From an uncultured bacterium (GTDB lineage Bacteria > Margulisbacteria > WOR-1 > JAKLHX01), in NCBI GenBank assembly GCA_964532225.1, contig CAZHHM010000005.1, positions 12,100 to 76,099 on the forward strand: a DNA stretch of 64,000 bases. Reading direction: 5' to 3'. Positions 2,240-58,627 of the stretch are shown here, piece by piece. Positions within the stretch are counted from its first letter, which is position 1; each line of letters begins with the position of its first letter. The notes beneath the pieces were generated by a model. That model searched no databases. It saw only the letters and a program-made list of their open reading frames with translations, and was not told the origin of the DNA. A program made the position numbers and the translations under genes.

Positions 2240-3790
2240 CTATACTCTGAACTGCCGATAGCTGATCTTATGGGCGCGGACCTTGTAGCCGAGGATACGG
2301 ACCGTGGTTTTCAGCATCTTTGCGGCTTTTGATATATTCCCTTTTGTCGATTTCAAGGCATCAATGATGATATCCTTTTCGTAGCTGCCGACAAGGTCGT
2401 CAAGAGACTGCTCTATCTCGGTCTTCGTGTCTTTCGCGGTCTGAAGCGATGCGGGAAGATGATGCGCATATATCACCTCTCCTTCGCACATGAGCACAGC
2501 CCTCTCGATGCAGTTCTCAAGCTCCCTTACATTTCCGGGCCAATGATAAGACATTAACGCGTCTATTGCGGGAGTTGATATCCTCTTTATTATCTTTTTG
2601 TTCATCTTCGAGTACTTTTCAAGGAAATGCTCGGCAATAAGGAGAATATCGCCTTTCCTGTCTTTAAGCGGAGGAAGATAAAGAGGGAACACGTTAAGCC
2701 TGTAATAAAGGTCCTCCCTGAACTTGCCTTCCCTGACCAGCTCTTCAAGGTTCTTGTTGGTCGCCGTTATCAACCTGATATTGCTCTTTATCGTCTCGGT
2801 ACCGCCCAGTCTTTCGAATTCCCTCTCCTGTATCACACGCAGCAGCTTTACCTGAGTGGCGGGGCTGAGGTCCCCTATCTCATCAAGGAATATCGTTCCT
2901 CCCTCCGCGAGCTCAAAACGCCCTGCTTTTCTTTCGAAAGCACCGGTGAAAGCCCCTCTTTCATACCCGAACAGCTCCGACTCAACAAGGTTCTCAGGAA
3001 GGGCGGCCATATTAACCTTGATGAACGGACGCTTCGATCTGAAACTGTTGTAGTGTATCGCATGCGCCACAAGCTCTTTTCCCGTACCTGACTCGCCCCT
3101 TATGAGCACAGAAGCATCGCTCTTTGCCACTTTTGCGATCATTGAGAACACTTCGGTCATACTGTTGCTTCGGCCTATTATGTTCTTGAAACTGTATTTG
3201 TCGCGGAGCTCGTCAAGAAGGTCGGAATTTTCCTTGATAAGACTGTCCTTTTCTTCTTTGCGTATCTTGTATTGCTTTACCGCCTGCGAGATCAGGTGCG
3301 CGATTATCGTAAGGAAGCGGACGTCCTCTTCAAGAGGGAGGTCGGGCGTGAAAATCTTATCGACGGAGAAAGCCCCAATCACTTTTCTTTCAAGTTTGAT
3401 CGGCACGCATATGAAAGAGACATCTTTCTTTTCAAGGTTCTTCCTTGCCTTTGTCTTGTTAAGGAAAAGCGGGTCCTCCCCGATCTTAGGAACGACCATG
3501 GGCTGCCCCGTCTGGACCACCCTGCCGGTCACCCCCTCGCCAAGCCGGTACTTGCCCCTTTTTTTCTCCGGCTCCGACAATCCGTGAGCCACCTCGACTA
3601 TCAGCTCCCCGCTCTTAGGGTCCAGAAGCGTGACCGTGCCTCTCGTCATTCCCATCTTGTCGTCAAGGATCTCCATTACAGAGTACATCGAACGTTCGAT
3701 ATCACCGCTTACATTGAGCATCTGGCTGGCTTCGTACAGTGCGGTCAGTTCCTGGAGCTTTCTTTTCAGGAGGGTCTGGTCTTTTGTCAT
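2240..3790 (-). CDS. Sigma-54-dependent transcriptional activator (GAF - AAA+ - Fis-type HTH; NifA/NtrC-like, no receiver domain)
   Basis: N-terminal GAF-like region. Walker [15 protein letters not shown] motif ([10 protein letters not shown]), and a C-terminal HTH ([21 protein letters not shown]). Likely start MTKDQ at 3790. Confidence 0.85.
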
Positions 3791-3844
3791 GTGTATATTA
3801 TAACACATTTATGTATAACTATTGATTGTTATTACACTTTTGTA

Positions 3845-5404
3845 TTATTTAGATGAGGGCAGAACGATCTTGAACGTGGACCCTTTACCCGGCACACTTT
3901 CAGCTGTGATCTTGCCGTTGTTCTTCTCAATCAATAGCCCGCATTGACTTAGGGCAAGACCCGAACCCTTTTCCCCGTCGGTACCGGGATTACTGGTAAC
4001 ACCAGTATCCTTGAACAAGCCTGAGAGGACTTCAGGGGACATGCCGACACCGGTGTCCTTAACAATGATCTCTACCTTCCCCGCGTTCATCATGCTGTAG
4101 ATGAAGACCTTACCGCCTTTTGGAGTGAACTTCAAAGCATTGGAAAGCAGGTTCCTTATCACAAAAGATAGGATGTCAGCGTCAGCAAATACCTTATGGC
4201 CGTCCTGGGTCATATTGAATATCGAGACCTCTTTGTTCTTCGCGGAAGAATACTGCCGGTCAACTTCTAAGCCTACAAGGCCGGTAACACTTGTTTCTAC
4301 CGGATTAACAGTAACGCCGTTCAGCTGCATTTTTGCCCAATCAAGAAGACCTTCGTGCAGTGCATAGGCTGAATATATCGATGTCCTCAACGTCCCGAGC
4401 ATATGTTCCATCTCAGGCTTGTTCGATACTGACCACCTTTCGATTATCAGGTCTATCCACCCCATCATGACCCCCAAAGGCCCCCTAAGGTCATGTGAGA
4501 TCACCGTAAAGAACCCGAGAAGCTCCTTGTTCCTTTCTTTAAGCTCATTCTCTTTGATCTTGAGGGCTGTAATATCCCTGTTTATCCCGACTACGCCTTT
4601 AAGGTCTCCCACTTCATTGAAGTAAGGGACTTTGGTCACAAGAGACCATTTAGGATCGCCATTAGCATCCCTGCCCTCCTGCTCGATATTAATGATCGGG
4701 GACCTGTACTGGATGACCCTGTCCTCCACCTTTTTAAAGGCAGATGCGGCCTCGTTATCATAATAATCAAAATCCGTCCTTCCAACGATGTCCTTTTCAT
4801 GCCCTACGCCGAGAGACTGCCTGAGCGCACGGTTTGCCATGACGAACCGTCCCTTGCCGTCCTTAAGATATATCTTGTCCGGTATGAGATCGGCAATATC
4901 CTTGACGATATTCAGGTCCGACTCAAGCGATCCAAGGCTGACAGAGGCATCCTGAAGCTCTTTTTGCAGATGACCGATGACAGCATCCGAAGCAATTTTA
5001 TACTCTTCATACTGGCGTCTTATTTCCTCATATGCGTTCAGGGATTCACGTACCGAAGAGCCAAGATTGAAACCCTTGACCCGCTCATCGGCAAGTTCCA
5101 GCCTTAACACTGCGTTTTCCGCTCTTACGGATGAAAGAGCATTGTTGATAGGCTCAAGCTGCAGTGCGTTTATCCTCGAATCGATCTTGCCTATGGTCTT
5201 ATGGAACAGTCCTGTGCCGGACAGTTTTGATGCGGCCTCAAGAACGCGAGATCCTGTCGCCAGCCCGGCTATCTCGACCCTGTTAAGTCCTATAGTCCTG
5301 TCCCAGTGCTCAAGTGCACGGGGCACAAGACGGTCCCTTATTATAGGAAGGTTCCTGAAACGGGAGTTTGTATCTTTGATCTGTATCCTGCCGGGTGTGC
5401 CCAT
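3845..5404 (-). CDS. PAS-domain sensor histidine kinase
   Basis: H-box FFTVISHDLRGPL. HATPase_c motifs (DTGVGMSPEV, GSGLALSQ). Central PAS-like segment ending in a coiled coil. Confidence 0.8.
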   Translation of the reverse strand: MGTPGRIQIKDTNSRFRNLPIIRDRLVPRALEHWDRTIGLNRVEIAGLATGSRVLEAASKLSGTGLFHKTIGKIDSRINALQLEPINNALSSVRAENAVLRLELADERVKGFNLGSSVRESLNAYEEIRRQYEEYKIASDAVIGHLQKELQDASVSLGSLESDLNIVKDIADLIPDKIYLKDGKGRFVMANRALRQSLGVGHEKDIVGRTDFDYYDNEAASAFKKVEDRVIQYRSPIINIEQEGRDANGDPKWSLVTKVPYFNEVGDLKGVVGINRDITALKIKENELKERNKELLGFFTVISHDLRGPLGVMMGWIDLIIERWSVSNKPEMEHMLGTLRTSIYSAYALHEGLLDWAKMQLNGVTVNPVETSVTGLVGLEVDRQYSSAKNKEVSIFNMTQDGHKVFADADILSFVIRNLLSNALKFTPKGGKVFIYSMMNAGKVEIIVKDTGVGMSPEVLSGLFKDTGVTSNPGTDGEKGSGLALSQCGLLIEKNNGKITAESVPGKGSTFKIVLPSSK

Positions 5405-5446
5405 CTTGGTTATTTATCGTTATTTTTAAGCGGGGATTTCAGACAG

Positions 5447-7144
5447 TTATTGTTTTGTTATATCAATAAATTCTTCTATGGTCTTCGCGCCGAGGTCGCC
5501 GTTCTCGCGTGAACGGACAGCAACTTTACCGGCCTCAGCCTCCTTATCCCCCATGACCAGCATGAAAGGGACCTTTTGCATCTGGGCTTCCCTGATCTTA
5601 AAGCCCATCTTTTCACGCCTGTCGTCAAGCTCTACCCTGATCCCTTTTTGTTCGAGCTCAGCCCTGACCTTTGAAGCGTACTCAAGATGCTTGTCGGATA
5701 TCGGGATCAGCACTACCTGCACAGGAGCAAGCCAGTAAGGGAAAGCCCCTGCATAATGCTCTGTCAGAACGCCGATAAAGCGCTCCATGCTCCCCAGCAC
5801 CACCCTGTGTATCATGACAGGTCTCTTTTTGGAACCATCCTCTGCAATGTAGTTAAGGTCGAACCTCTCGGGAAGCGCAAAATCGACCTGTATGGTCGGC
5901 CCCTGCCATGCTCTGCCTATCGCGTCCTTGATCTTGACATCTATCTTTGGCCCGTAAAAAGCCCCGCCGCCAGGGTCAACGTCATATTTGATACCTTTGT
6001 TCTGCATCGCTTTTTCAAGCGCCTGGGTCGCGTGCTCCCAGCCTTTTTCTTCACCAACAAAGCTGTCCGGCCTGGTCGAAAGATATACTTCGTATTCTTT
6101 GAAACCAAAAGCCTTTAGCATGTCAAAAGCGAAATCTATGACATTGACTATCTCCTGCTCGAGTTTTTCCTCGGTGCAGAATATATGGGCGTCATCCTGG
6201 GTAAAGCCCCTTACTCTCATGAGACCGTGAAGGACACCTGACCTTTCGTGCCTGTATACCGTGCCCAGCTCGAAGAACTTGACAGGAAGGTCCCTGTAGC
6301 TTACCAGGCTCCTCTTGAATATCAGCATATGGCCCGGGCAGTTCATCGGCTTAAGGACATATTCCTGCTCGTCTATGTCCATGAAATACATGTTCTCTTT
6401 GTAATAGCTGCTGTGGCCCGAGGTGTTCCAAAGGTCTATCTTGGCAATATGAGGGGTAACGACCTGCTGATACCCTCTCTTCCTGTGCTCTTTTTTGAGG
6501 AACTGCTCTATAGTTTCACGCAGCACCGCTCCTTTTGGGTGATAGAACACAAGGCCGGCACCTGCTTCGTCATAGTAAATATTAAAGAGGTCAAGCTCTT
6601 TTCCTATCTTGCGGTGATCGCGCTTCACTGCCTCCTCAAGCCTCTTGAGGTATGCGTCAAGGTCTTCCTGCTTCTCAAAACAGGTGCCGTATATCCTCTG
6701 AAGCATCTGGTTCTTTTCGTCGCCTCTCCAGTAAGCCCCTGCTATCTTAAGCAGCTTGAACGCCTTTACCTGGCCTGTTGAATCGATATGAGGGCCTCTG
6801 CACAGGTCTATGAACTCACCGTTCTTGTAGAAAGAGACCTTGTCATCTTCAATGCCGTCCAGAAGCTCAAGCTTGAACTTCTCATTGTTATCCTTCATCA
6901 TCTTTACCGCTTCGGGCTTTTGAACTTCTACTCTTTCGAACTTTACGTTCTTCTTTATGATCTCGTTCATTTTCTTTTCAATGGCATCGAGGTCTTCGGG
7001 TGTCAGTGTGCGGCCAAGCTCAAAGTCATAATAGAATCCGTCATCGATAGACGGGCCTATGGCCAGTTTTGCTTCAGGGAACAGCTCTTTCACGGCCATT
7101 GCCATGACATGAGAGGTCGAGTGTCTTAATCTGTCGAGGTCCAT
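5447..7144 (-). CDS. thrS: Threonyl-tRNA synthetase (short form lacking the N-terminal TGS domain)
   Basis: 565 aa. Begins directly with the N2 editing-domain signature (RHSTSHVMAMAVKELFP). Class II core plus anticodon-binding domain with ThrRS motifs (GPKIDVKIKDAIGRAWQ). Confidence 0.9.
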   Translation of the reverse strand: MDLDRLRHSTSHVMAMAVKELFPEAKLAIGPSIDDGFYYDFELGRTLTPEDLDAIEKKMNEIIKKNVKFERVEVQKPEAVKMMKDNNEKFKLELLDGIEDDKVSFYKNGEFIDLCRGPHIDSTGQVKAFKLLKIAGAYWRGDEKNQMLQRIYGTCFEKQEDLDAYLKRLEEAVKRDHRKIGKELDLFNIYYDEAGAGLVFYHPKGAVLRETIEQFLKKEHRKRGYQQVVTPHIAKIDLWNTSGHSSYYKENMYFMDIDEQEYVLKPMNCPGHMLIFKRSLVSYRDLPVKFFELGTVYRHERSGVLHGLMRVRGFTQDDAHIFCTEEKLEQEIVNVIDFAFDMLKAFGFKEYEVYLSTRPDSFVGEEKGWEHATQALEKAMQNKGIKYDVDPGGGAFYGPKIDVKIKDAIGRAWQGPTIQVDFALPERFDLNYIAEDGSKKRPVMIHRVVLGSMERFIGVLTEHYAGAFPYWLAPVQVVLIPISDKHLEYASKVRAELEQKGIRVELDDRREKMGFKIREAQMQKVPFMLVMGDKEAEAGKVAVRSRENGDLGAKTIEEFIDITKQ

Positions 7145-7168
7145 GATGTTATTATAGCGCGTTTTTAA

Positions 7169-7299
7169 CCCTCACCCCGTCCCTCTCCCTTAACAGGGAG
7201 AGGGAGGATCTGGACCCTCACCCCGTCCCTCTCCCTTAACAGGGAGAGGGAGAATCTGGACCCTCACCCCGTCCCTCTCCCTTAACAGGGAGAGGGAGG
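7169..7299. repeat. Tandem array, 3 x 46 bp, each unit a palindromic element ccctcaccccgtccctctcccttaacagggagagggag plus atctgga
   Basis: Three near-identical units read directly. Each carries the inverted repeat ccctctccc/gggagaggg. The array lies between the thrS start codon (7144) and the DUF559 gene. It is followed by a T6 run on the plus strand. Confidence 0.85.
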
Positions 7300-10715: not shown

Positions 10716-12389
10716 TCAATCCACCAGCATTTCGTTGATCGCCTGCCCCGCAGGAACGAACGGGAAAACGTTCTCTTCTCTTGCTACGATAAAATCTATG
10801 ACCGTAGGCTTGTCCCTTGTCGCCATAGCCTTTTTCATGGCCTTTTCGACATCCTCGAATTTTTCCACTCTTATCGCCTGAGCACCGTAGGCCTCGGCTA
10901 TCTTGATGAAGTCCGGATTGTCGTCGAGATCTGTTGCAGAATACCTTTTACCGTGAAGTATTTCCTGCCACTGCCTGACCATCCCGAGATATCGGTTGTT
11001 CAGAATGGCAATGATGACAGGCATTTTATTGTTCACGGCCGTGTTCAGCTCCTGAATGTTCATCTGTATGCTTCCGTCCCCGGCGATATCGATGACCACC
11101 TTGTCCGGGCAGGCTACCTGAGCGCCGATCGCAGCCGGGAACCCGTACCCCATCGTCCCAAGACCTCCGGAAGAAATGAAGGTCCTCGGTTTGCTGTACT
11201 TATAGTACTGTGCGGCCCACATTTGATGCTGACCGACCTCGGTTACTATTATCGCGTCCCCGTTGGTCACCCTGTATATCTCTTCGAGCACGGCCTGAGG
11301 TTTAAGCCCTTCGCCGGCTTTGTAGCACAGCGGATGCTTCTGCTTCCAGGCCATTATCTGCTCCATCCATGGAGAATTGATATCTTTAGGTTTAACATGC
11401 GCTTCAAGAGCGTTAAGGACGTTCTTCACATCCCCTACTATCGGCACATCCACGCTGACGTTCTTGCCGATCTCGGCAGGATCGATGTCGATATGTATGA
11501 CCTTCGCATTGGGGGCAAAATGAGAGATCCTTCCGGTCACCCTGTCGTCGAACCTGGCCCCGACCGCTATAAGAAGGTCACATTCGGTAACTGCGTAATT
11601 CGCATAAACGGTCCCATGCATGCCAAGCATCCCCATTGACAGAGGATGTGTTTCGTCAAAAGCACCTTTGCCGAGAAGCGTTGTCGTTACGGGCGCGTTT
11701 ATCTTGACCGCAAGCTTCCTCAGCTCTTCAGAAGCACCAGAACTGATCACTCCGCCTCCGACATAGAGCATCGGTTTTGAAGACTTGTCGATAAGTTTTG
11801 CCGCGGCAGATATCTGCTTGGGATGCCCGTTGTATGTGGGTTTGTACGAAGGAAGACATACCTTTTCAGGCCATGAGAAATCTATCTTTTTCATCTGGAT
11901 ATCTTTGGGGATATCGACAAGGACAGGGCCCTGTCTGCCCGTGCTAGCAACATGGAAAGCTTCTTTTATCGTGCATGCTATCTGGTTGGCGTCCTTTATC
12001 AGATAATTGTGCTTGGTTATTGGCATGGTTATGCCCGTAATGTCAACTTCCTGGAAGGAATCCCTGCCAAGGAGCATGGTCGAGACCTGGCCGGTGATAG
12101 CGACCATAGGAACAGAGTCCATATGAGCGTTTGCTATGGCGGTTACCAGATTGGTCGCGCCGGGCCCTGATGTCGCGAAACAGACCCCTACTTTTCCCGA
12201 AGCCCTCGCGTATCCGTCGGCCATATGGCCTGCGCCCTGCTCATGTCTGACCAGTATGTGTTTCAGCCCTTTGAAGTTGTAAAGTGCGTCATAAAGAGGC
12301 AAAGACTGCCCTCCGGGAAGCCCGAAAACGACTTCTACGCCCTCCTTTTTGAGCGACTCGAGTATAGCTTGTGCGCCGGTTATTTCCAT
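10716..12389 (-). CDS. ilvB: Acetolactate synthase large subunit (TPP/FAD enzyme)
   Basis: 557 aa. TPP-enzyme N-terminal, central and C-terminal blocks ([14 protein letters not shown]..., GAQVA...IAGDGS). Confidence 0.9.
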
Positions 12390-12472
12390 TGTCGGTTTGT
12401 CCTGATTTTGTTATTTTAGCAAATTCTGAGCTCTGGCGCAATGCAAGTTGTTTATCACTTATTTCGATAAAT

Positions 12473-15040
12473 ATGCAGGAAATCATTAATATGAGGGGTC
12501 TTTTAGGACAGCTCGACACAATAAAGTCTGCTTCAATAATTTCGGAAAAGAACCCAATTCTTGACCAACTGATGGAATTGGCCAAAAATGCCGTAAAGAT
12601 GTTCAAGGCTTCAAGGCCCTTGTCAGGCCCGGACGGGCAAGAACCTCTCACCCTAAAGGTCTCGTACGGGATAAAGAACGACCAAACAGGCAATATCCGG
12701 AACACGGTACATCAGATCGCGAACAATATGCCCCCATCCGTGGATATTATGGCGGCTTCCCAAGCGTTCAAATTCCTTGGGATAGACTGCAATGACACGA
12801 CAGGGCTTTTCTCAGGCTATGATATCAGCGCCGCAAAGAACGGAAAGACCGCAGAAGAGACAGGAGCCCTGGCACTGCCCGACAGGGACGCCCAATTCTC
12901 CAGGTTCGGAAAAAATGCCGCAGAGATGTCCGCGTTATTTAACAACGCGATAGCCGGCACAGTTAGCGGGAACCCTTATTATTTCGGAAGAGCGGCTAAT
13001 GCACTTGGACAGATCACGGGGTTCGCATCTCTGACCCATGCGGCCAACGATCTGGCTGAAAGCCTCGCGGGAAGCAACGGGATCTTGAACGTATCCGCGG
13101 AAACCCAGCTGGGAACTTCAACAGCTCTATCGCTTAATCTCAACTTCAATCCTATGGGGAGCATCAACGACGGGGCGCTGCCCTTCTCCTGGAAGAACAC
13201 CTTCACCGGCTCTCTAGGTATCGGGGGCGGCACAAATTTTGCAAAATTCGGCAGCGGGTCCTCTACCTTCTCGGTGGACGGCGACTATTCGGCAAGGATA
13301 GGTCTGGGATATATCGGGAGTAACGGAGGGCTCAACATAGGGAACTTCTACAACAATTCTATCTTTATCCCTGTCAAAGAGTCCTTTTTCCCTCTGGCCA
13401 ACCTCAATGCTTCTGTGACAGCTTCCTATGTTAAAGACTCGTTCAGTGTCAGCGCGGGAATAAAAGCAGGCCCTCCCATTGCCGTTTATACAGCTGCGAT
13501 GTCGAACGTAAAGGGGCAGTCGGGCTTTTCTGAAGGGTTCGATCCGAACAACAGTTTCCTTCCTGATCTGACCGGCAACATATCCGCAGGTTTTCAGAAT
13601 GATGCACTCACGACTTTACTGAACATTAAAGGCAACCTTGGCGCGGGGACGGTCGACAGGCTTGAGCTGCTGTTCAAAATGGGCCCCCATTCCGTGATCA
13701 ACACTTTCGGCCTGCCGGTGGAGTTTTCCGGATCATTCGGTCTTGAAGGCGGATTGGGAGGCATCAATTTCTCAAGTTACCTCAATCATATGTTCGGAAA
13801 GGTAGGGTTCTCGATGAATCTGGGGGACCTTTTCGGCTCATCAAGAAATCCTGCGGCCAGCATCTCCGCAATGACCGCCTCCTCTTCTGCTTCGTTAACG
13901 ACAGCAGTGAACGCGTCTTTCTCCCACTCATTTGTATTGAAAGATCCGGTAACGGAAGCTGTCGAACTCACAGCACCTAAGTTAACTGAGCTGCCGCGGC
14001 CTGAATCACCGAACATCTCAAGCCAGATCATCACTTTACCGGAAGTGGAGGTGTTCCCTGAAACAGCACCTAAAGAGATATTGATAAAGAACGGGGACAC
14101 TCTTTGGGATATTGCCTCCTCAGAGCTGGGTAAAGGCGCACGTTGGAGAGAGCTTGAGGTCTATGACAGCAATGGCAGCAAGATCGAACTTATTGACCCA
14201 CGAAAGCTCAGACCCGGGATGAGGGTCAGGGTGCAAGGGAAAGTAAGCGAGGGAAATACTGCACTTGCAGCATCAGAAAGACCTCCAGTGCAAGAACAGT
14301 CAACGAACAGCCCTCTGCTGTCAAGGGAAATGCTGCTCAAGGCCTATACCGAGATTAGATCGGAGACGGGAGCGACAATATCTTTGCAGGCTTTTGAAAA
14401 AGCCTACACCGCCTACGCAGAAATGGTCTCCTCCGGAAAAGTAAGGCCCGGAAAGCTGTTGGTCTGCGATTTTACAATGCATAACAGCGAGAACCGTTTC
14501 TATGTTCTTGAGGTAGACCCGTCTGGAGGCATCACCATCAAAGACGCTATCAAGGTCGCGCACGGGTCAGGAACTGATAAGAACAACGATGGCTGGGCGG
14601 ATATTTTTTCGAACGTACAGGACACCCATGCAAGCAGTATGGGATCTTTCAGGATATCAGAAAGGACTTTCAGGCCCAACAGTCTGGGTTTTGTGTATTT
14701 TCTGGACGGCCTGGACAGCACTAACTATCTTGCCCGGCGAAGGAACATCTACATACATTCAACTAAAGACTTAAAAAAGCAGTATGTCCCGGAGAAGAAC
14801 GTTCCAAATGTTCGAACCGGCAACAGCTGGGGCTGCTTTACTCTGAACACCAATGATTCGGACAGGCTTGGATTCGGTCTTGGAGCATCAAAGACCGCAG
14901 ACAACGATATCTCCGGATACCTCCTTTTCGCTTTCTTTGACCCCGAAGAAAGGAAAGTAAGCATGGAGAACTTCGCGGCGTTCGGGACATCAAGGCCCAC
15001 TGGGACCTTCAGTTTTGAAAACGGCATCGAAGACCTTTGA
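12473..15040 (+). CDS. Large Gly/Ser/Asn-rich protein with a LysM domain and a C-terminal L,D-transpeptidase (YkuD)-like catalytic motif
   Basis: Start MQEIINMRGLL. LysM: ILIKNGDTLWDIASS...RPGMRVRV. C-terminal motif IHST-x20-SWGCFTLNTNDSDRL resembles the LDT signature H(G/S)T...S.GC..L.N.D. No signal peptide seen. Confidence 0.5.
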   Translation: MQEIINMRGLLGQLDTIKSASIISEKNPILDQLMELAKNAVKMFKASRPLSGPDGQEPLTLKVSYGIKNDQTGNIRNTVHQIANNMPPSVDIMAASQAFKFLGIDCNDTTGLFSGYDISAAKNGKTAEETGALALPDRDAQFSRFGKNAAEMSALFNNAIAGTVSGNPYYFGRAANALGQITGFASLTHAANDLAESLAGSNGILNVSAETQLGTSTALSLNLNFNPMGSINDGALPFSWKNTFTGSLGIGGGTNFAKFGSGSSTFSVDGDYSARIGLGYIGSNGGLNIGNFYNNSIFIPVKESFFPLANLNASVTASYVKDSFSVSAGIKAGPPIAVYTAAMSNVKGQSGFSEGFDPNNSFLPDLTGNISAGFQNDALTTLLNIKGNLGAGTVDRLELLFKMGPHSVINTFGLPVEFSGSFGLEGGLGGINFSSYLNHMFGKVGFSMNLGDLFGSSRNPAASISAMTASSSASLTTAVNASFSHSFVLKDPVTEAVELTAPKLTELPRPESPNISSQIITLPEVEVFPETAPKEILIKNGDTLWDIASSELGKGARWRELEVYDSNGSKIELIDPRKLRPGMRVRVQGKVSEGNTALAASERPPVQEQSTNSPLLSREMLLKAYTEIRSETGATISLQAFEKAYTAYAEMVSSGKVRPGKLLVCDFTMHNSENRFYVLEVDPSGGITIKDAIKVAHGSGTDKNNDGWADIFSNVQDTHASSMGSFRISERTFRPNSLGFVYFLDGLDSTNYLARRRNIYIHSTKDLKKQYVPEKNVPNVRTGNSWGCFTLNTNDSDRLGFGLGASKTADNDISGYLLFAFFDPEERKVSMENFAAFGTSRPTGTFSFENGIEDL

Positions 15041-15097
15041 TAGATGCAAGTTTTACGGCATCTCTACCGAATGATATACGAAACGGAGAAAAATAAT

Positions 15098-15331
15098 ATG
15101 AGCCCTAAAACAAGGATGGCACTAAGACTGGCGGACACGGCGGTAAATTCCTACGTTTCAAGAAAAGGCGACAACCTTGTCAGCATTGCAAAACGTATGC
15201 TTCCCGACGGGGCCGGCACGCGTGAACTCCTTTATCTGGCACAGAGACTTTACTACCTCAATGAAAAACAGATCGGACCTGATCCTGTCAATATACGTCC
15301 GGGGACCAAACTAAAGGCGTCCTCCAGATAA
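15098..15331 (+). CDS. Small LysM-domain protein
   Basis: Start MSPKTRM after SD GGAGA. LysM-like YVSRKGDNLVSIAKRML...IRPGTKLKA. Confidence 0.5.
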   Translation: MSPKTRMALRLADTAVNSYVSRKGDNLVSIAKRMLPDGAGTRELLYLAQRLYYLNEKQIGPDPVNIRPGTKLKASSR

Positions 15332-21618: not shown

Positions 21619-21710
21619 TGATTTTGAGCCATTATAACACCGGTGAAGTCGCTCTTCAATTTAATCCGGAACAGTGAAATTGCAAGCTGGTTTTGAAGAT
21701 AAGGATATGT

Positions 21711-23003
21711 ATGAGCTCATTTTCAAGGACATCATTAGTGCGCCACCCAATATTGTCTACAAGGGCGCTAGTTGAAAAGATCAACAACATATACTACCCG
21801 AAGGTCCAGTTCAGGTACATAAACAATGACCATATCCAGCCTCTGAGCGTGTTCGACTCGCATACGATAATAAGCAGCATCAACGGGATAGGCGGACATC
21901 CGGGCACCATCAACTGGAAAAGCATGATCCCGTTCGTGGGAGCCGCCTATTCTGCAATCAAAGCCGTCGACAGGGCAACGGTATCTTCTGCTTTTATGAA
22001 CGGTAAAGACGTCCCTAACAATATCGAGATAACATACGATATCTCCGTAAAGAAACAGGCCTTCAAGGTTGGCGCCAGTCTGTACCTGATGATGGAGGGA
22101 TTCCCTCTTCTTAACCTGGGCATTCTCGGCGTACCGCTTGATTTTCTGGAGGCCTTCTCCTATCTGACACTTAACGCCGCAAGGAACGTTTTTGCCGATC
22201 TGGGGGCAAAGCACGGATGGAACATCAGGCAATGGAGAGCACATCCGGAGCACCTCAAGATCACAAAGCTGACGACCTCCCTTATCGTAACCTCGCTTTC
22301 GTACCCACTTCTATCTTTCATGAAGAACATGACATATTTCGAGTTCGGCGATTCTCCGTGGGTCTGGGTCGCGACACCTTTGACCCTCACAATGCTTGAC
22401 GGAGCGATACAGTATGTATCAAGAAAAATGAGAGGCTTCGACAATTCCATGGCCAAGTATGATTTCTTCCGGCCTGTCGTAGGGGACACGCTGTCAACAC
22501 TGTCCTTCTTCTTGTCAGGCATGGATATCGCGGGCAATTTTTCCTATCTTATCCTAAGAAAGGTCTTCTCTGAGCTCTGGACGGGACATTTTGAAAGCTC
22601 GACCAAACGCCGCGAAAAGATCATCGAAAGGCAGGAACAGTTCAAGGAGATCCTTGACATAAAAAGATATCTGGTACCCGACCCTATCGCGACATCCTCG
22701 ATCAATTTCGTGTACATGATGAACGTAAAATCTCTGGCTCAAAGGTCTTTCTCCGAACTGCTTTCCGATCAGGATTTTGTTTCAAACAACCGAAAAGTGC
22801 TACTCGACATACACAAATGCCTTACAGAGAACGGAGAACGCACCGATAAAGCGGTCGATTTTCTGTTCCCCGCCGGCAAGTTCAGGGTCTTCGGCGACGT
22901 AATGAAGGAACGTTTTTCCGAGAATAAGGCCGGCTATCTGGATTGGTACCGGGTGAATATCGGGCTTTTTGAAAGGTCCGTCGTGGAAGGGATAACGCGA
23001 TGA
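21711..23003 (+). CDS. Hypothetical protein with several hydrophobic segments (island ORF)
   Basis: Start moved to the ATG (MSSFSRT...) preceded by AAGGA; the track begins at a TTG. No recognisable motifs. Translationally coupled (ATGA) to the downstream LysM gene. Confidence 0.4.
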   Translation: MSSFSRTSLVRHPILSTRALVEKINNIYYPKVQFRYINNDHIQPLSVFDSHTIISSINGIGGHPGTINWKSMIPFVGAAYSAIKAVDRATVSSAFMNGKDVPNNIEITYDISVKKQAFKVGASLYLMMEGFPLLNLGILGVPLDFLEAFSYLTLNAARNVFADLGAKHGWNIRQWRAHPEHLKITKLTTSLIVTSLSYPLLSFMKNMTYFEFGDSPWVWVATPLTLTMLDGAIQYVSRKMRGFDNSMAKYDFFRPVVGDTLSTLSFFLSGMDIAGNFSYLILRKVFSELWTGHFESSTKRREKIIERQEQFKEILDIKRYLVPDPIATSSINFVYMMNVKSLAQRSFSELLSDQDFVSNNRKVLLDIHKCLTENGERTDKAVDFLFPAGKFRVFGDVMKERFSENKAGYLDWYRVNIGLFERSVVEGITR

Positions 23004-23434
23004 CGGCGCCTGCGAGAAAAACGCGCTACAGCAGTGCGTCCAGCATCGGCATCAGGCTTATAAAGAGCGGGCTCATGATTAACAGCGGCAAGGTGACACT
23101 TCTTATAAAAGAGAACGATACGCTTTGGAACATCGCTGTAGCGATAAGAAAGACCGCCCCTCTGTGTTCGATGGTATCGGTCAATAAGATAGTGAGCATG
23201 CTGATGATACAGAACGGGATAGCGCAAGAGAAGGACCTCCTTCCGGGAACGGTGATCACGTTCACCCTACATTTTCCGGAACTTGCCCCCTCGGTGCCAT
23301 CAGAGACCTTGCCTGTAAAAAAGCCTTTCTGGAAAGACCCCGCATCAAACCGCTTCTTCAGACCGGTAAAAAGGATAGAACCGGCCGATCTGCACGAGCT
23401 ACTGACCAAGATGTTCGGCTCTGACGGTAGATAG
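23000..23434 (+). CDS. LysM-domain protein
   Basis: LIKENDTLWNIAVAI...LLPGTVITF LysM-like motif, paralogous to the DTLWDIA LysM in the 12473-15040 protein. Confidence 0.5.
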   Translation: MTAPARKTRYSSASSIGIRLIKSGLMINSGKVTLLIKENDTLWNIAVAIRKTAPLCSMVSVNKIVSMLMIQNGIAQEKDLLPGTVITFTLHFPELAPSVPSETLPVKKPFWKDPASNRFFRPVKRIEPADLHELLTKMFGSDGR

Positions 23435-23512
23435 GTCTTTATCTTTTTTAAATTACTCGTCTTTAACTGAAATCACTTACTTATATGAACGATATATACT
23501 CAGAAAGACTAA

Positions 23513-25870
23513 ATGGGAACAAACATCGGTAGCAGAACGATCGCAACGGACCTTATCAGGTCGAGACGGCCTTTCATCGAAAGGTCTTTGTCGAACAGCG
23601 GTTTTGAAAGGATCTCCGGATCCAGACCTGCTGTCAACGCTTTAACAAAGCTAAGCCTTGGCATGATACTGAGGTCCGAGGCGGAATCCAGGCTCAAAAG
23701 ATCGGGCATAGAGATCACTCCTCCGCTAAGCGTTCATCTGGACTCATACTTCAGGACACCTCCGGCTGCCACAGCCGACCGAGGGACTCAGACCTCAGGA
23801 GAGCCGCTTCAGATGCTGAGAGGGACCCCGGGCGAGGTCCTTGATGCGATAAGTATGATAAGGGCAGGCCTATCCTCAGACGACCGCAGACAGTACCTTA
23901 AGCAGGACATATACGATTCTTTTATCGATATCCTCCTTGCCGGCGGAATAAACCCGTTCATTAAAAGTTCGATCACCGAACAGGTGCTGCCCAAATACAG
24001 CCACTCACGTTTCGGGACGGAACGCTCTCTTATCCTGCATATATCACTGCTAAAAGGTAAAAAAGACCATGAAGCAGCGGTCAAAGAGCTCTCTAATTTC
24101 GGAGCGAAATGCTTTTCAGAGAACGCACTGGGGACAGCCATTCCGGATATTCTCTCCCCAAAGCTGAAACATCCTCCTCAGTACGCAGACGGGCTTATAA
24201 CTTTGTTCCGCACAAAGAACAGGACAAGCTTCAGCGACAGGAACTTTGACCTGTGCATCGGGTTCGATACCAAGGCACACACCCCGGACATGACCAGGAC
24301 GTTCCTTGGTCTGCTTGATGCGTTCTTACTTTCCGGAAAGATCAGCAGGGAACGTATTTCGGACGCCTTCAACATAGCTTCCGGAATACTTTTGACCCAG
24401 GCATTCGACAAAAAGTCCGTGCTTCATGCCATGTCGGTGATCAGGAGCTCAGCCGCGAGTGTTCCCGAAGGCGCCGGAAATGCGCTCGCTTCAAGGATCA
24501 TTTACCTTTGCAGGGACCATGACAGCCAGGTCTCTTACGGAGCACTAAAAACCGCCGCCAGTCTCTTTGCTTCGGCAAAGATCCCTTCAACAGAAGAACT
24601 TAATGCTATTGCGTTTTCCAAGCTTAAGGACCACAACTTTGAATGCAGGGCCGGCGCCTGCTCACTGATATCTGCACTTTTCGACAAAGGCGCTATTTGC
24701 GGTATTTCCACACAGAGGAATGTCAGGTCGGCGATAAAACCTCTTGGCGCTTTGGGGCAAGAGCAGGCCCGTGACGTGCTGGCTTTTCTTGAACGGGCCC
24801 ATAAGGAAGACAAGTCCTCCTTTGACAGGGACAACCTCGAACATCTGCTCGACATCTGGTCCCGCGATGAAGCTCCCGGATCGAGCGGAATGCATCTTTG
24901 GATGGTGCCGGCTCTGGCATTCTTTGACTGCATGCCTCCCGAAGAAAGGACCTATTGCGCCCTGTCAGGCATACTGCAAAGCAAAGACTACACGCACCGG
25001 TCCGCAGACGCTTTCATGAGACTGGTCAATTCTATGCTGACAGCAGAGAATGTCGGCGCCGAGACAATATTCTCGACGATCTGGGAATTCTGCAGGAACG
25101 AAGGCCAGGCAGTCACTAAAGACCTGATCGGCATGATGCGCTCCATACCCGGATGGGAAAGGGATAACAACTTATCAGGCATTGAGGACATCATGCAGAT
25201 ATCCCTAAGACATATGGACCCGTCTTTCCCGGGAATGACATGGAAAGAGCTGCTGGCAAAAGAAGTAAAAATGCTTGTCAGGTATTTGCGGGACGTAAAG
25301 AATACCGGTTTTCCGGAAGACCTGATGAAAAAAGCGGCTTTTAAATATACTTATATCGTCAGGAACGGAGGCATAGAGAAAGCCGATCTTGAGGACCTTG
25401 ATAAGGACCGGCTCACTCTGGATGACATCGACAACATGTACGACCTGAGAAATGATATCAATCCGTACTTCCTTGCTCTTGAAGCGCAGTTGAGGATAGT
25501 GACAGAGTCCCTTACGAAAGCCAAGAAGGACAAAAGCTTAGGCAGGGACGCGGTCAAAAGGCTTGAAGAGCAAAAGGCGCTGCTGACCTCGGAAACAAGG
25601 CAAAAGAGGAAGAAGCTTATCACGCTTGCCGTCATGTTCAACAGCGTTCAGAGATACCCTTCGCAGCTCCTTTCAAAGCCGGAGATAAAAAGCTTCGTTG
25701 ATGAATTCAGGGCAACGCTCAACCTCAGGAATTCCATACCTCAGATAATGATAGAAAAATTAAAGATCATCCTTTGGGATAACTGGGAAGCGGTCGAGAC
25801 CATTGCGGAGAGGGTCAAAGCCGAGGTTAAGGGGCTGAAAGAAGAATTCCTAATATTCGAGGAAAAATAA
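23513..25870 (+). CDS. Large hypothetical alpha-helical protein (785 aa)
   Basis: Long ORF with no enzyme motifs recognised. C-terminal coiled-coil-like region. Ends 8 bp before tRNA-Leu. Confidence 0.4.
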   Translation: MGTNIGSRTIATDLIRSRRPFIERSLSNSGFERISGSRPAVNALTKLSLGMILRSEAESRLKRSGIEITPPLSVHLDSYFRTPPAATADRGTQTSGEPLQMLRGTPGEVLDAISMIRAGLSSDDRRQYLKQDIYDSFIDILLAGGINPFIKSSITEQVLPKYSHSRFGTERSLILHISLLKGKKDHEAAVKELSNFGAKCFSENALGTAIPDILSPKLKHPPQYADGLITLFRTKNRTSFSDRNFDLCIGFDTKAHTPDMTRTFLGLLDAFLLSGKISRERISDAFNIASGILLTQAFDKKSVLHAMSVIRSSAASVPEGAGNALASRIIYLCRDHDSQVSYGALKTAASLFASAKIPSTEELNAIAFSKLKDHNFECRAGACSLISALFDKGAICGISTQRNVRSAIKPLGALGQEQARDVLAFLERAHKEDKSSFDRDNLEHLLDIWSRDEAPGSSGMHLWMVPALAFFDCMPPEERTYCALSGILQSKDYTHRSADAFMRLVNSMLTAENVGAETIFSTIWEFCRNEGQAVTKDLIGMMRSIPGWERDNNLSGIEDIMQISLRHMDPSFPGMTWKELLAKEVKMLVRYLRDVKNTGFPEDLMKKAAFKYTYIVRNGGIEKADLEDLDKDRLTLDDIDNMYDLRNDINPYFLALEAQLRIVTESLTKAKKDKSLGRDAVKRLEEQKALLTSETRQKRKKLITLAVMFNSVQRYPSQLLSKPEIKSFVDEFRATLNLRNSIPQIMIEKLKIILWDNWEAVETIAERVKAEVKGLKEEFLIFEEK

Positions 25871-25878
25871 GCCCTATT

Positions 25879-25962
25879 TGCCGTTGGAGAGACTCGAACT
25901 CTCAAGAGTGTTACCTCACATGGTCCTAAGCCATGCGCGTATGCCAATTCCGCCACAACGGC
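25879..25962 (-). tRNA. tRNA-Leu (anticodon TAG), type II with long variable arm
   Basis: Folded by eye: acceptor gccgttg/caacggc, 3-bp D stem, anticodon stem catgg/ccatg with loop cttagga, T arm gagag-ttcgagt-ctctc, discriminator A. No encoded CCA. Confidence 0.8.
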
Positions 25963-26045
25963 ACGTAGTCCATTTTAACACGCACGGTATTGACATTTTA
26001 TCTCCAAGCTATATGATATCCCTGCCTAAAGAAAGGAGCCAACAG

Positions 26046-27215
26046 ATGAAACATTTCGCGATCATGGCGTTCCTGCTTGCAATGACATCACATTCCTTTG
26101 CTGCGCTGTATATCGGCGAGACGAAAGCGATACTTGAAAGCATATCAAATAAGAGAGCCGAGATAAATTTCGCCTACGATTCGTCCCCTGCCCCGAAGTT
26201 CGCGATGTGGCCTTCGGACAGCAAGTTCGAGGTCTATTACAGGATGTGGGACGACTCCAAGCTTGCGGGTTATTCTCTGAACGTTTGGCAGACATTAGAC
26301 ATGTACAACTTCAACACTTGGGCATGGACAATTGGCGGCACGGGTAATAGCGCTACAGGCACTGACACGATGCGGGGAAAATATGACAATTCAGGGATAT
26401 GGAACATATACCCCTTGAACCAGGGGAACGTGACAAAGTTCAAGCTGACATTGAGCGCGGACACCAAAAGCATACCAAGAAGGACAGAAAGCAGGGAGTT
26501 CTACGTACTTAAGAACATGCCTGACGGCTCGAGGACCGCAAAGAAACAGGCCGCGATGAAATGGATAGTCGGACGGCTTGAACGTGCAACAATGTTCAGG
26601 AACATGGCCGATACATGGAAGGCAAAAAGGACCTCCACGTCTTCTGTCAACTACAACCTTGAAATGGGAAAGATCATCATGAGCGCTGCGGGGCTTTTCG
26701 GTCCTACTGACGCAAAAGGATACGCAATAGACAGCGGCATTGAGTTCCTGGACCTCGCCTCCTCCGTCTTCGGGAATGTCGCGACAAGCAGCCTGGTCTC
26801 TGTAGGCGGGGCCGTCTATCAGGCTTATGACTGGGGAACATGGGCAAAAAGCACGCTGCAGTCATCCGCAAACCTTTGGAATTCCGCATTTAGCGATTTC
26901 AGGGCTTCCCAGACGGCAAATCTGGTAGGCACAGGCCTTGAGAATGATCTTTACAACCTTGCTAACGCCATGAGGGATGATGCCAACGAAGTTATCAGAA
27001 TAATGTACACTGCTCCCTACGACAGCACTGCGAATTGGAAGAGCCTGTTAAGCCTTGAAAAAAGCCGGGCCAACAGCGTCGGTGTATCTGCCGCATCGGC
27101 AAAGAGCAAAGCGGACCAGATCTGCGGCACCGGATCTAACCTTTCGAATTTCTTTGAGACGATAAACAAGCTTGCTAACGCGGAATGGATGGTGCTGAAT
27201 CAGATATCATTCTGA
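26046..27215 (+). CDS. Hypothetical secreted protein (389 aa)
   Basis: Start MKHFAIMAFLLAMTSHSFAA (signal peptide) after SD AAGGAG. The track ORF start upstream overlaps tRNA-Leu and is not credible. Confidence 0.45.
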   Translation: MKHFAIMAFLLAMTSHSFAALYIGETKAILESISNKRAEINFAYDSSPAPKFAMWPSDSKFEVYYRMWDDSKLAGYSLNVWQTLDMYNFNTWAWTIGGTGNSATGTDTMRGKYDNSGIWNIYPLNQGNVTKFKLTLSADTKSIPRRTESREFYVLKNMPDGSRTAKKQAAMKWIVGRLERATMFRNMADTWKAKRTSTSSVNYNLEMGKIIMSAAGLFGPTDAKGYAIDSGIEFLDLASSVFGNVATSSLVSVGGAVYQAYDWGTWAKSTLQSSANLWNSAFSDFRASQTANLVGTGLENDLYNLANAMRDDANEVIRIMYTAPYDSTANWKSLLSLEKSRANSVGVSAASAKSKADQICGTGSNLSNFFETINKLANAEWMVLNQISF

Positions 27216-36515: not shown

Positions 36516-37994
36516 TTAGAATCTGGTCGTCATCCCCAAGATAAGAAGGTCATCCGTGGTCTCCGCGGCATTCGGATCGATCTCCAGCCTGTAAGCCGCT
36601 GTCGCTGTCGTTGACTGCGCCAGTGACATATCAAGCTGTACCTGCGAAGTAAGTTTTGAGCCTGCCTCTCCCCGTCCATACCTGTATGAGCTCGAAAGCG
36701 CCATATTGTTGATGAGGCTGAACGAGACCTGCTCCGACACCAGCTTTTTCAGCTTGATCTGTAATGACCGGCTACCGTTTGTCAAAGGCCTGTCGAAAGG
36801 ATCGAACCCGACCATGGTCCACTGGTCAAGAGGATCGCCTGCCGGGATGTATTCCGAGCCCGCGACCACGGCCTTAACGTCGAACATAAGCTGCATCCTG
36901 ACCTTATCCTCGAAAGTGAACCCGGACGAAACGACCATCTTGTGGTAGTCAAGGTTCCTGAAGGAACCTGCCTTGAGGTCGAGGAAGTATGACAGCACAT
37001 CGTTGGGCTGTGCCGAGATATTGAGCCCTGATTTAAAATTGGTACGCCTTGTCTGTCCTACGAGGACGTTCTCAGTGAAATAATCCCCGCGCAAAGTGAC
37101 CGTTCCCTTGCCCAGCATCGGAACACTGTCAAATGACCTGGTCAGTGCGGCTCCAGTCTGTGACACGCCGACAGAACCGGCACTTGCAGCAGAAGTGGCA
37201 ATGTCATGCGCTCTGAAATAACCGCTGACGGTATTGCCGAAAACGACCGTGGTCGCCTTTATGCCGGGATAGGGCCTCATATAAGTCCTGTTCACTTCGG
37301 ATGGGATCCCAGATAAATGGCGCTGAGGGCCGGGGCCTACCGTGGTCGATACAGTAAGGGGCAGTGAAGCGTCCGGTCTTATGACAAGCTCTGCGTCGAG
37401 CATCTTGAATATATCCTGAGAACCTCCGTACAGACCTCCGTCCATAGTGTCAAAATTCACCGAGAGTGATTCAACCCCTTCCATTGACGGGCTGAATGAC
37501 GCGGTCACTCTGTAATTCATGAAAAGGCCCTGCCTTGAAACCGAAGGCACGGTCTGTCCGGCGAGCATGTTCCCCGCCATCAACTGCACGCCGAAAGAAC
37601 CCGAGAACGGATCGTACTGCGCTTTCTTGAGATAAGTCCCGTTCTCGACTTCGTCCTTTATCGATTTGATCTCGGTTTTAAGCTCGGCCGCCAGCTTCTC
37701 CACCCCGGTAACTCCAAGGTATTCGATAAGCTTTGCCATCAGTCCAGCGGTCTCATACCTTGTAATATCCTTATTGCCCCTGAAGGTGCCGTCCTGGTAG
37801 CCTCCGGTAATGCCCAGGTTGACCAGCTTGTTCACCGCGCCTGCCGCCCAATGCGAGTTCGGCATATCTTTAAAGACGCCTGTAGATGTCTCTTCTGTTT
37901 TCTTGGTCGACTTTGGCTTGGCCAACGCCATCCCGGACATCACGAACACGATCAGCACAAGAACAGCCAGTCTTTTCATCGATATCTCCTTCAT
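36516..37994 (-). CDS. SLH-domain outer-membrane porin (Omp-alpha-like)
   Basis: Signal peptide. N-terminal SLH motif (FKDMPNSHWAAGAVNKLVNLGITGGY...TRYE). Coiled-coil linker. Beta-rich C-terminal region ending ...GMTTRF. Confidence 0.7.
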   Translation of the reverse strand: MKEISMKRLAVLVLIVFVMSGMALAKPKSTKKTEETSTGVFKDMPNSHWAAGAVNKLVNLGITGGYQDGTFRGNKDITRYETAGLMAKLIEYLGVTGVEKLAAELKTEIKSIKDEVENGTYLKKAQYDPFSGSFGVQLMAGNMLAGQTVPSVSRQGLFMNYRVTASFSPSMEGVESLSVNFDTMDGGLYGGSQDIFKMLDAELVIRPDASLPLTVSTTVGPGPQRHLSGIPSEVNRTYMRPYPGIKATTVVFGNTVSGYFRAHDIATSAASAGSVGVSQTGAALTRSFDSVPMLGKGTVTLRGDYFTENVLVGQTRRTNFKSGLNISAQPNDVLSYFLDLKAGSFRNLDYHKMVVSSGFTFEDKVRMQLMFDVKAVVAGSEYIPAGDPLDQWTMVGFDPFDRPLTNGSRSLQIKLKKLVSEQVSFSLINNMALSSSYRYGRGEAGSKLTSQVQLDMSLAQSTTATAAYRLEIDPNAAETTDDLLILGMTTRF

Positions 37995-55301: not shown

Positions 55302-55302
55302 A

Positions 55303-56076
55303 TTAACCTGCCTTTTTGAAAGCTTTCTCTATGAGCTCGAGCTTCGTGCCCAGCCTTGCGTCGACATAACCCAGATTGGTCTCGATGACACATCCGCCCT
55401 GCTCTACCTGGGAATCCTCCACTATTGAAAGGTTTTTGATCCCGTCCACGATGCCTGCGATCTTTTCCTTGTTCTTTTTTACATACTCAAGGTCTTCCCT
55501 GTTGACCTTGACGATGACGCTGTCGCGGTCGCTGACCCTGTTCACTGCATCAACGATCATGTTCATGATGGCATCTTTGTTGGTGGTCACCTCGGACCTG
55601 AGTATCTGCTCGGCGATCTTCAGGGACAGTCTGAGTATCTCCTGTTCGGAATCCTTAACTACCTTCTTTTTCTCCTCGATAGCGCTGTTGAGCGTCTCAA
55701 AAGCTTCGGTAACATATTCGGCGACTTTCTGCTCTCCTTCTTTCCGGCCCTCTGCCTCTGCTTCTTCCTTGGCTTTTGCCCGTATGGACTCTGCTTCGGC
55801 ATAGGCGGTCTCGATCACCTCCTGGGCCTTTGCCTCTGCCTCCGCCATTATGTTCCCCGCGGCTTCCTCCGCGCTCTGCTCGGCTTCCAGTCCTGAGAAC
55901 TGAGACTCTTGGTCTTCTTGTTCTTCCGTATGTGATCCTGTGGACATATGTGGCACAGGTGCTGCCATGCGGAGATTCGCGGAGTTCTGGTCGTCTGAGG
56001 GAACATCTCCTGCGGCCGCCTGTCTGAGATCGATGATCCCCTTTTCGACTATCCTGTCCTTTTTGATTATGGCCAT
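55303..56076 (-). CDS. fliH: Flagellar assembly protein FliH
   Basis: Glu/Ala-rich coiled coil then FliH C-domain. Position between the FliG-like gene and fliI. Confidence 0.75.
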   Translation of the reverse strand: MAIIKKDRIVEKGIIDLRQAAAGDVPSDDQNSANLRMAAPVPHMSTGSHTEEQEDQESQFSGLEAEQSAEEAAGNIMAEAEAKAQEVIETAYAEAESIRAKAKEEAEAEGRKEGEQKVAEYVTEAFETLNSAIEEKKKVVKDSEQEILRLSLKIAEQILRSEVTTNKDAIMNMIVDAVNRVSDRDSVIVKVNREDLEYVKKNKEKIAGIVDGIKNLSIVEDSQVEQGGCVIETNLGYVDARLGTKLELIEKAFKKAG

Positions 56077-56077
56077 A

Positions 56078-58255: not shown

Positions 58256-58276
58256 TTACTGCTTTACCCCCTGTTA

Positions 58277-58618: not shown

Positions 58619-58627
58619 CTATATCTC

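Follow-up and report, generated by a model that had tools for sequence, protein, structure and literature searches.

A candidate LysM-targeted L,D-peptidase of the YkuD_2 family with an orphan N-terminal region in an uncultured Margulisbacteria-like host

Introduction

Coupling a LysM domain to a Cys/His catalytic domain is a classical layout among L,D-transpeptidases (LDTs). Bacillus subtilis YkuD joins the two, and Escherichia coli LdtE and the other LysM-containing E. coli LDTs follow the same logic. Here we describe an 855-residue protein with this combination, encoded at 12473..15040 on the + strand of a 64,000-nucleotide stretch of DNA (hereafter the window, meaning the whole stretch analysed) from an uncultured bacterium assigned to the Margulisbacteria (WOR-1; JAKLHX01). 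The window covers positions 12,100 to 76,099 of contig CAZHHM010000005.1 in GenBank assembly GCA_964532225.1. From its N terminus the protein comprises an orphan region, a linker, a LysM domain and a YkuD_2 catalytic domain, and it has no leader sequence. B. subtilis YkuD also lacks a leader, but the canonical LysM-YkuD LDTs have no counterpart to the long N-terminal region found here.

The YkuD_2 family (PF13645) is large, with >1500 matches in one profile search, and is scarcely characterised. In the literature searched we found only a genetic phenotype, for Legionella Lpg1697, and no solved YkuD_2 structure was detectable by sequence. Lpg1697 has 225 residues, carries a leader and lacks a LysM; the 855-residue protein differs from it on each of these points. 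Members of the family are typically 185-300 residues long (the longest among the 120 best homologs has 462) and mostly bear a signal peptide or lipobox, whereas the protein considered here is leaderless and adds a LysM and an orphan region of 530 residues. Among solved structures, the best fold match is LdtGo2 (LDT_Go; PDB 8qzg) of Gluconobacter oxydans, which resembles our protein in being ‘YkuD-like’ but barely detected by canonical YkuD models. LdtGo2 is a lipoprotein, however.

What is new at this locus is the leaderless 855-residue architecture, together with an orphan amphipathic-β module, an insertion in the loop between the catalytic His and Cys, and the degree of divergence of the catalytic domain. 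Judged from its sequence, we tentatively favour, at slightly less than even confidence, a native LysM-targeted Cys/His L,D-peptidase of YkuD_2 type, a cell-wall enzyme that carries a lineage-specific N-terminal module.

Results and discussion

A divergent YkuD_2 catalytic domain

The catalytic domain occupies residues 610-838 (14300..14986, + strand). It scores 88.1 bits against PF13645 (cut-off 27 bits, E=5.6e-25, profile positions 4-154 of 169), the Pfam match spanning residues 635-797, whereas canonical YkuD (PF03734) reaches only 14.3 bits against a cut-off of 23.4 (E=0.062). An earlier interpretation of this DNA, made without database searches (the sequence-only reading), had assigned the C-terminal part to the YkuD/L,D-transpeptidases. 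The superfamily stands, on the PF13645 score and on the LdtGo2-like fold described below, but canonical YkuD does not. The family is reached only with some effort. Word-indexed searches with the full-length and C-terminal sequences returned the protein itself and one homolog of 36% identity; a two-sequence profile was needed, and it retrieved 1549 homologs, nearly all of them carrying the PF13645 annotation. Conservation was assessed on an alignment of the 120 best homologs of the domain, none of which carries a Pfam LysM annotation.

All 11 columns that are invariant in this alignment are kept in our protein (H697, G698, G724, G746, N751, R757, H762, G783, S785, G787 and C788). They include the histidine of the AHG motif, H697, identical in 120/120 homologs, and the predicted catalytic pair: His762 (codon 14756..14758), the histidine of IHST, and Cys788 (codon 14834..14836), the putative nucleophile in SWGC. 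The motif IHST-x20-SWGC, which the sequence-only reading had singled out, is present with both codons confirmed, and its His and Cys are each invariant in 120/120 homologs. In an AlphaFold model built on the 120-homolog alignment, the predicted local distance difference test (pLDDT) score of the catalytic domain is mostly >90, with lower values at 770-790 and 800-810; taken together, the LysM and YkuD_2 parts reach ~70-97 over the greater part of their length. Foldseek against the PDB placed 8qzg, the G. oxydans 1,3-L,D-transpeptidase, at the top (probability 0.99, E=2.2e-3, 256 aligned columns). No other solved structure matched convincingly. Identity to 8qzg is only 13%, and a PDB sequence search with the YkuD_2 alignment profile gave no chain at E<=1. 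The C-terminal domain is thus modelled with an L,D-transpeptidase-like fold, and the unrelated fold that would have spoken against the earlier assignment was not seen. The likeness to YkuD_2 consists in the score above cut-off, the complete set of invariant residues and the confident model.

The surroundings of the catalytic pair are unusual. The spacer is H-x25-C where P0004, the closest homolog, has H-x17-C, and the eight extra residues correspond to insertions at 766-770 (five residues) and 776-778 (three residues) relative to the family alignment. The canonical YkuD motif H-x(14-17)-[S/T]HGCh[R/N] is not found; in its place stands GNSWGCFT after the 25-residue spacer. The nucleophile region reads G-N-S-W-G-C-F-T-L and departs from the family consensus G-R-S-W-G-C-P-A-L, in which position 784 is Arg in 108/120 homologs and position 790 is Ala in 115/120. 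The long spacer had been taken as a likeness to Tlde1-type toxins, which turns the comparison around: according to the Tae5/Tlde1 paper, the His-Cys spacer of DUF2778 is smaller than in YkuD, the residues being H121 and C131. Membership in Tlde1/DUF2778 was rejected, since the spacer is longer instead of shorter and a Pfam search with the 855-residue protein gave no DUF2778 (PF10908) hidden Markov model match at E<=1.

The nearest relatives by identity, P0014 (43%) and P0004 (36%), are both leaderless. P0014 is encoded on a phage-like contig (L085) that carries terminase and portal genes, and another leaderless homolog, P0006, on a phage-like contig (L082/L083) with ERF and DnaB; in P0004 the YkuD_2 domain is fused to Amidase_2. 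Because other near neighbours carry ordinary leaders, a phage origin of the domain is only hinted at. Leaderless homologs are many among P0004, P0006, P0007, P0014, P0050, P0054, P0090 and P0108, and the partners fused to several of these comprise Amidase_2, PG_binding_1, phage lysozyme, GH46, GH108 with PG_binding_3, and DUF1906. The comparison suggests that YkuD_2 may also serve as a lytic module. On a 2-Mb chromosomal contig (L084, 6464-8768), a leaderless 255-residue YkuD_2 protein (P0083, N terminus MAKKGEQ...ALEQV..LNA.NELL) directly follows a gene of the GH46 (chitosanase) family, a pairing of GH46 and YkuD_2 that recurs as a fusion in P0054.

YkuD-type domains are known from phage lytic proteins, among which the PhaLP database has them as a rare catalytic class. 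Like these, several of the closest homologs are leaderless and some have a second cell-wall-enzyme domain. Might the 855-residue protein, then, be a phage lysin or virion-associated lysin, domesticated or in decay, that has lost the family reaction and persists as a peptidoglycan-binding scaffold or without function? The leaderless P0014 and P0004, the phage-like contigs of P0014 and P0006 and the many substitutions at near-invariant positions would all fit, as would the LysM, whose best profile is an endolysin PHROG and whose best PDB match is a phage tail protein. However, the reading frame is intact over 855 codons with host-like codon usage, the catalytic His and Cys are kept along with nine other invariant residues, and no phage genes flank the gene. 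Phage and viral collections match nothing beyond the LysM: scans of genome contigs and viral contigs with the 855-residue protein found no relatives, an alignment-based scan (A1) of the viral contigs gave no match, and the sole tblastn match in a phage collection was to a LysM of Bacillus phage G. We therefore consider this origin and fate quite unlikely.

The LysM domain and the reading frame

Ahead of the catalytic domain, residues ~531-590 (14063..14242, + strand) form a LysM-type peptidoglycan-binding domain (GDTLWDIA...RPGMRVRV), as had been recognised from the letters. Several independent weak-to-moderate matches back this identity. The domain matches phrog_380, an endolysin PHROG, at E=2e-9 and the NCBIfam LysM model at E=0.0055; PF01476 gives 13.4 bits, under its 20.9-bit cut-off, and the best PDB match is 9g8s_T, a LysM phage tail protein (E=0.05). 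The AlphaFold model has the βααβ arrangement of a LysM, with a strand at 534-537, a helix at 544-552 and strands at 561-564 and 584-587, at pLDDT mostly 68-91.

The whole gene lies in a + strand frame that is open from 12371 to 15040 and ends in TGA, with a TAG directly after. Translation from the ATG at 12473, the start predicted earlier, gives 855 residues, which is also the length of the NCBI-derived protein, P0001, encoded on a contig of 79,459 bp. The codon for M7, at 12491, is a possible alternative: it is preceded by AGGAAA with an 8-nt spacer, a better Shine-Dalgarno sequence than that of ATG 12473, so that translation may really begin six codons downstream, a choice that makes no difference to the rest of the analysis. 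A GTG at 12371 was also considered and rejected as the start, as it overlaps the start of the divergent ilvB at 12389 and the residues it adds are not a convincing leader. With ilvB only 83 nt away and the GTG extension overlapping it, an upstream start that supplies a signal peptide is rejected.

A run of 855 stop-free codons has a chance probability of ~1.5e-18. Relative synonymous codon usage of the gene correlates at 0.90 with that of the other window genes (range among those genes 0.72-0.96), and GC content at third codon positions is 0.51-0.61 in every sub-region. The length without a stop and the host-like codon usage argue that the whole open reading frame (ORF), odd N-terminal part included, is a real coding sequence. 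The codon usage and third-position GC content further indicate that the gene has long been resident in the genome, and on the host-like codon usage we reject recent horizontal acquisition.

An orphan N-terminal region

The first 530 residues fall into three parts. Residues 1-200 (12473..13072, + strand) are helix-like (α-amphipathicity z=3.3) and have neither a signal peptide nor a family match; AlphaFold places helices at 2-17 and 28-47 with pLDDT 58-80 and models the remainder of this part with low confidence. Residues 201-480 (13073..13912, + strand) are rich in Gly, Ser, Asn, Leu and Phe (14, 14, 10, 10 and 8%), with 10% charged residues. Residues 481-530 (13913..14062, + strand) form a Pro/Glu/Ser/Val-rich inter-domain linker (P 14%, E 14%, S 12%; pLDDT <50). 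The sequence-only reading had described a Gly/Ser/Asn/Phe-rich region of roughly 450 residues; the compositional bias is real, but it is concentrated in the 280 residues of 201-480.

This middle part shows a period-2 hydrophobic alternation, with a β-moment of z=4.9-5.3 against shuffled sequences. For calibration within the window, cytosolic enzymes give z=-2.3 to +0.3, FlgI and FlgA 1.6-1.9, and the barrel part of an SLH-domain porin 3.1. With a β-moment above that of the porin, residues 201-480 have the look of stacked amphipathic β-strands, not of a disordered spacer, and the sequence suggests that this set of strands may have outer-membrane-protein character. The AlphaFold single-sequence model of residues 201-480 has a pLDDT of ~32.

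Database searches shed little light on the N-terminal part. A phmmer search with residues 1-520 against 1.84 billion representative proteins returned only the self-match, Pfam at E<=10 gave no match with residues 1-200 or 195-485, and nothing in the PDB sequences, PHROGs or PADLOC matched it. Neither internal repeats nor an enrichment of FG motifs was detected, and the window contains no paralog. Residues 201-480 may conceivably be a membrane-inserting β-barrel-like module that does without a Sec leader, belonging either to a self-delivering bacteriocin or effector or to an outer-membrane-anchored L,D-peptidase. In the first case the protein would cross the outer membrane of a target and bring its LysM and L,D-peptidase into the periplasm; in the second it would be exported non-classically, with the 77-residue LysM paralog encoded downstream acting as chaperone or antagonist. 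Taken jointly, we hold these two versions to be improbable. An OmpA-like layout of Sec signal plus barrel was not found: the protein has no signal peptide, it matches no outer-membrane-protein family in Pfam, and no barrel was modelled (pLDDT 32).

A small LysM-like protein downstream

Immediately downstream, at 15098..15331 on the + strand and 19 nt upstream of lipA, lies a gene for a leaderless protein of 77 residues. The ATG at 15098, with GGAG 9 nt upstream, is the best start, and the identical product was called on a separate Logan contig of 1.6 kb (run SRR10083292, for which a literature search found no mention). That this is a small LysM protein, as first proposed, holds in the sense that it is weakly LysM-like. 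It matches phrog_380 at E=2.9e-5 and Pfam LysM at E=0.032 (14.6 bits, under the 20.9-bit cut-off), and it aligns to residues 530-590 of the 855-residue protein with 32% identity (pairwise E=1.9e-6). No signal peptide was detected in it. The two ORFs share a reading frame, separated by TGA TAG and 54 nt (15038-15100). The common frame and the similarity between the two LysM sequences may reflect a local duplication. LysM paralogy without a leader speaks against immunity of the classical periplasmic kind and in favour of a co-expressed partner, which the co-directional 77-residue protein probably is.

Polymorphic toxins and colicin-like bacteriocins also combine an N-terminal region and a C-terminal active domain with a small co-directional downstream gene. 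Our protein, leaderless, with an N-terminal part of no known family, a peptidoglycan-active C-terminal domain and a small gene behind it, resembles them in layout, and it could be an antibacterial effector or bacteriocin-like toxin in which the N-terminal module serves release, trafficking or passage through a target's outer membrane, the LysM and L,D-peptidase damage the target's peptidoglycan, and the 77-residue protein acts as partner or immunity factor. Type VI secretion systems provide documented cases of L,D-peptidase toxin domains (Tae5/Tlde1), leaderless YkuD_2 domains occur in phage contigs as lytic modules fused to Amidase_2, lysozyme or GH46, and orphan singletons are common among fast-evolving toxins. 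The likeness to Tlde1/Tae5 extends to the L,D-transpeptidase-fold superfamily, the catalytic His/Cys, the absence of a Sec leader and the small neighbouring gene. Tlde1, however, has ~173 residues and sits in type VI secretion loci beside a Sec-exported immunity protein, whereas the neighbour here is leaderless.

No trafficking domain (PAAR, Rhs, LXG, MIX, RTX or similar) was matched in Pfam, NCBIfam, PADLOC or PHROGs, and PADLOC as a whole gave no match to the 855-residue protein. When the first residues of each ORF in the 64-kb window were read, the only secretion-system genes recognised were flagellar, and no type VI genes were among them. The 77-residue protein is without the signal peptide needed for immunity to a toxin acting in the periplasm, and a LysM paralog is not a typical immunity fold. 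Finally, the gene sits within housekeeping operons and has host-like codon usage. A toxin thus appears unlikely.

Activity and localisation

If the 855-residue protein is a native cell-wall enzyme, its LysM would, by analogy with the L,D-transpeptidase superfamily, dock it onto glycan strands. The chemistry of the YkuD_2 domain can be projected from the same superfamily. Cys788, activated by His762, would attack the L-centre carbonyl of the third stem-peptide residue; D-Ala4 would leave, and a thioester acyl-enzyme would form. Resolution by an acceptor amine would then yield a 3-3 cross-link or an amino-acid exchange, and resolution by water would make the protein an L,D-carboxy- or endopeptidase. 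Trimming or hydrolysis, or an altered specificity, seems no less likely than classical 3-3 cross-linking. We lean this way because of the substitutions at near-invariant positions, the 8-residue His-Cys insertion and the leaderless relatives of phage-lysin type. The N-terminal orphan module most likely confers association with the envelope or membrane, or a Sec-independent exit from the cytoplasm. The localisation of the protein, like the roles of its N-terminal module and of the 77-residue protein, is something that we infer.

So, is this a working cell-wall enzyme? Several results weigh against it. The first concerns export. The protein has no signal peptide, lipobox, twin-arginine translocation motif or transmembrane helix. 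In Kyte-Doolittle profiles the 19-residue mean peaks at 0.96 and, over the first 40 residues, the 10-residue window peaks at 0.94, so that the absence of a detectable signal peptide, already pointed out by the sequence-only reading, is upheld by hydropathy and extends to transmembrane helices. A leader-like N terminus (signal peptide or lipobox) was found in 77/121 sequences scored, about two thirds of the YkuD_2 homologs, and since the leader is absent here, access to the peptidoglycan is unexplained. The second is divergence. Eleven near-invariant positions are changed (S701T, Y732T, G734R, S741V, R743F, S752Y, N753L, V760Y, A764T, R784N and A790T), and on average the domain is 36% identical to the homologs, which average 51% with one another. 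By these alignments no other sampled member diverges as far, and enzymatic activity could have been altered or lost through this divergence. The third is isolation. The 855-residue protein forms a singleton cluster, its N-terminal 520 residues are otherwise unmatched in databases, and AlphaFold gave no usable N-terminal fold. Moreover, Margulisiibacteriota contig JAQUOB010000050.1 (L002), which retains the order lipA-aminotransferase-pdxA at 3146-7293, has pilT and a prepilin-peptidase-like gene upstream of lipA in place of the LysM/YkuD_2 pair. With pilT at this position in a related contig, comparative evidence of conservation is absent.

The lack of an export signal would also suit an enzyme that works inside the cell. 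Acinetobacter baumannii ElsL (LdtK) is a precedent, as a leaderless YkuD-family domain acting as a cytoplasmic L,D-carboxypeptidase (PMC8649774). In a recycling role of this kind, the 855-residue protein would convert imported tetrapeptide muropeptides to tripeptides, its LysM binding the disaccharide of N-acetylglucosamine and N-acetylmuramic acid. Both proteins are leaderless and of the L,D-transpeptidase fold, but ours is multidomain, and besides the LysM its 855 residues include an amphipathic-β and helical extension, 530 residues long, for which no cytoplasmic role is obvious. Its domain is YkuD_2 and not canonical YkuD, and the recycling genes ampG, ampD and mpl were not recognised nearby when ORF starts were read. 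We regard an ElsL-like function as distinctly doubtful.

We return to the tentatively favoured cell-wall enzyme for what it would mean. A leaderless, LysM-bearing and highly diverged YkuD_2 protein in a deep-branching diderm would extend the range of architectures known for the L,D-transpeptidase fold. The His-Cys insertion and the loss of the family Arg (R784N) could mean that the substrate or the reaction is a different one, and the orphan amphipathic-β module raises the question of how a peptidoglycan enzyme free of Sec signals reaches the wall. As a single sequence without orthologs, the protein is of modest practical value; it is a candidate for biochemical characterisation and not a new system.

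Genomic setting and host

Upstream of the gene, on the opposite strand, lie ilvB, ilvN, ilvC and dxr. Downstream on the same strand, the 77-residue LysM gene is followed by lipA, an aminotransferase gene, pdxA and rsmA, and a terminator scan between the LysM/YkuD_2 pair and lipA detected none. A position between ilvBNC-dxr and lipA-aminotransferase-pdxA-rsmA points to a resident gene and not to a recent mobile insertion. The best relative of LipA among GTDB species genomes comes from the Candidatus Margulisiibacteriota metagenome-assembled genome to which contig JAQUOB010000050.1 belongs (60% identity), the nearest relative available for comparison. Going by such sequence likeness, the host is most like Margulisbacteria.

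Two other loci in the window bear on the host's envelope. On the - strand at 53979-63984 is a flagellar cluster of fliI, fliH, a fliG-like gene, fliF, fliE, flgC, a flgB-like gene, a sigma-factor-like ORF, flgI, flgH, flgA and flgG, with panD inserted between flgH and flgA. Within it, a 97-residue ORF after flgI (60105-60398, - strand) has a weak Rod-binding/FlgJ-like match (E=0.029, under the Pfam cut-off), and no hydrolase domain was found in it. At 36516-37994 (- strand) a 492-residue protein combines a signal peptide and an SLH domain (E=5e-13) with a β-rich C-terminal part ending in ...TTRF, an arrangement as in OmpM-type outer-membrane tethers or porins. The SLH-type porin places the host among diderms of the SLH-anchored type and, with the P- and L-ring genes of the flagellum, indicates a flagellated diderm. 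In a diderm whose flagella span the peptidoglycan, a peptidoglycan substrate therefore exists.

Could the protein serve the flagellum itself? Flagellar export substrates lack Sec leaders, a flagellar cluster lies in the same window, and the 97-residue FlgJ-like ORF has no hydrolase domain, so the 855-residue protein might be a peptidoglycan remodeller exported by the flagellar type III apparatus that replaces the missing enzymatic half of FlgJ. PMC8517470 describes the use of a separate peptidoglycan lytic enzyme in organisms with a single-domain FlgJ. However, our gene is ~40 kb from the flagellar cluster and inside a housekeeping operon, Pfam gave no flagellar N-terminal domain, and 855 residues with a folded β region make an unlikely substrate for the rod channel. 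The FlgJ partners known to us belong to the glycosidases or lytic transglycosylases and not to the L,D-peptidases. Such a flagellar role is very improbable.

A second lineage-specific block, at 21693-25870 (+ strand), repeats the theme of a small LysM protein beside large orphan proteins. It encodes a 436-residue ORF without a Pfam match, a LysM-like ORF of 144 residues and a 785-residue protein with no significant family match. The 144-residue ORF is leaderless, overlaps the previous stop by 4 nt and has a weak LysM match under the cut-off (E=0.0098; motif IKENDTLWNIA...LLPGTVITF). Directly after this block, the listed 445-residue ORF at 25878-27215 (+ strand), which has no significant family match, overlaps a tRNA-Leu on the opposite strand (25878-25963, - strand), and its real start is probably at the internal MKHFAIMAFLLAMTSHSFA signal peptide near 26040.

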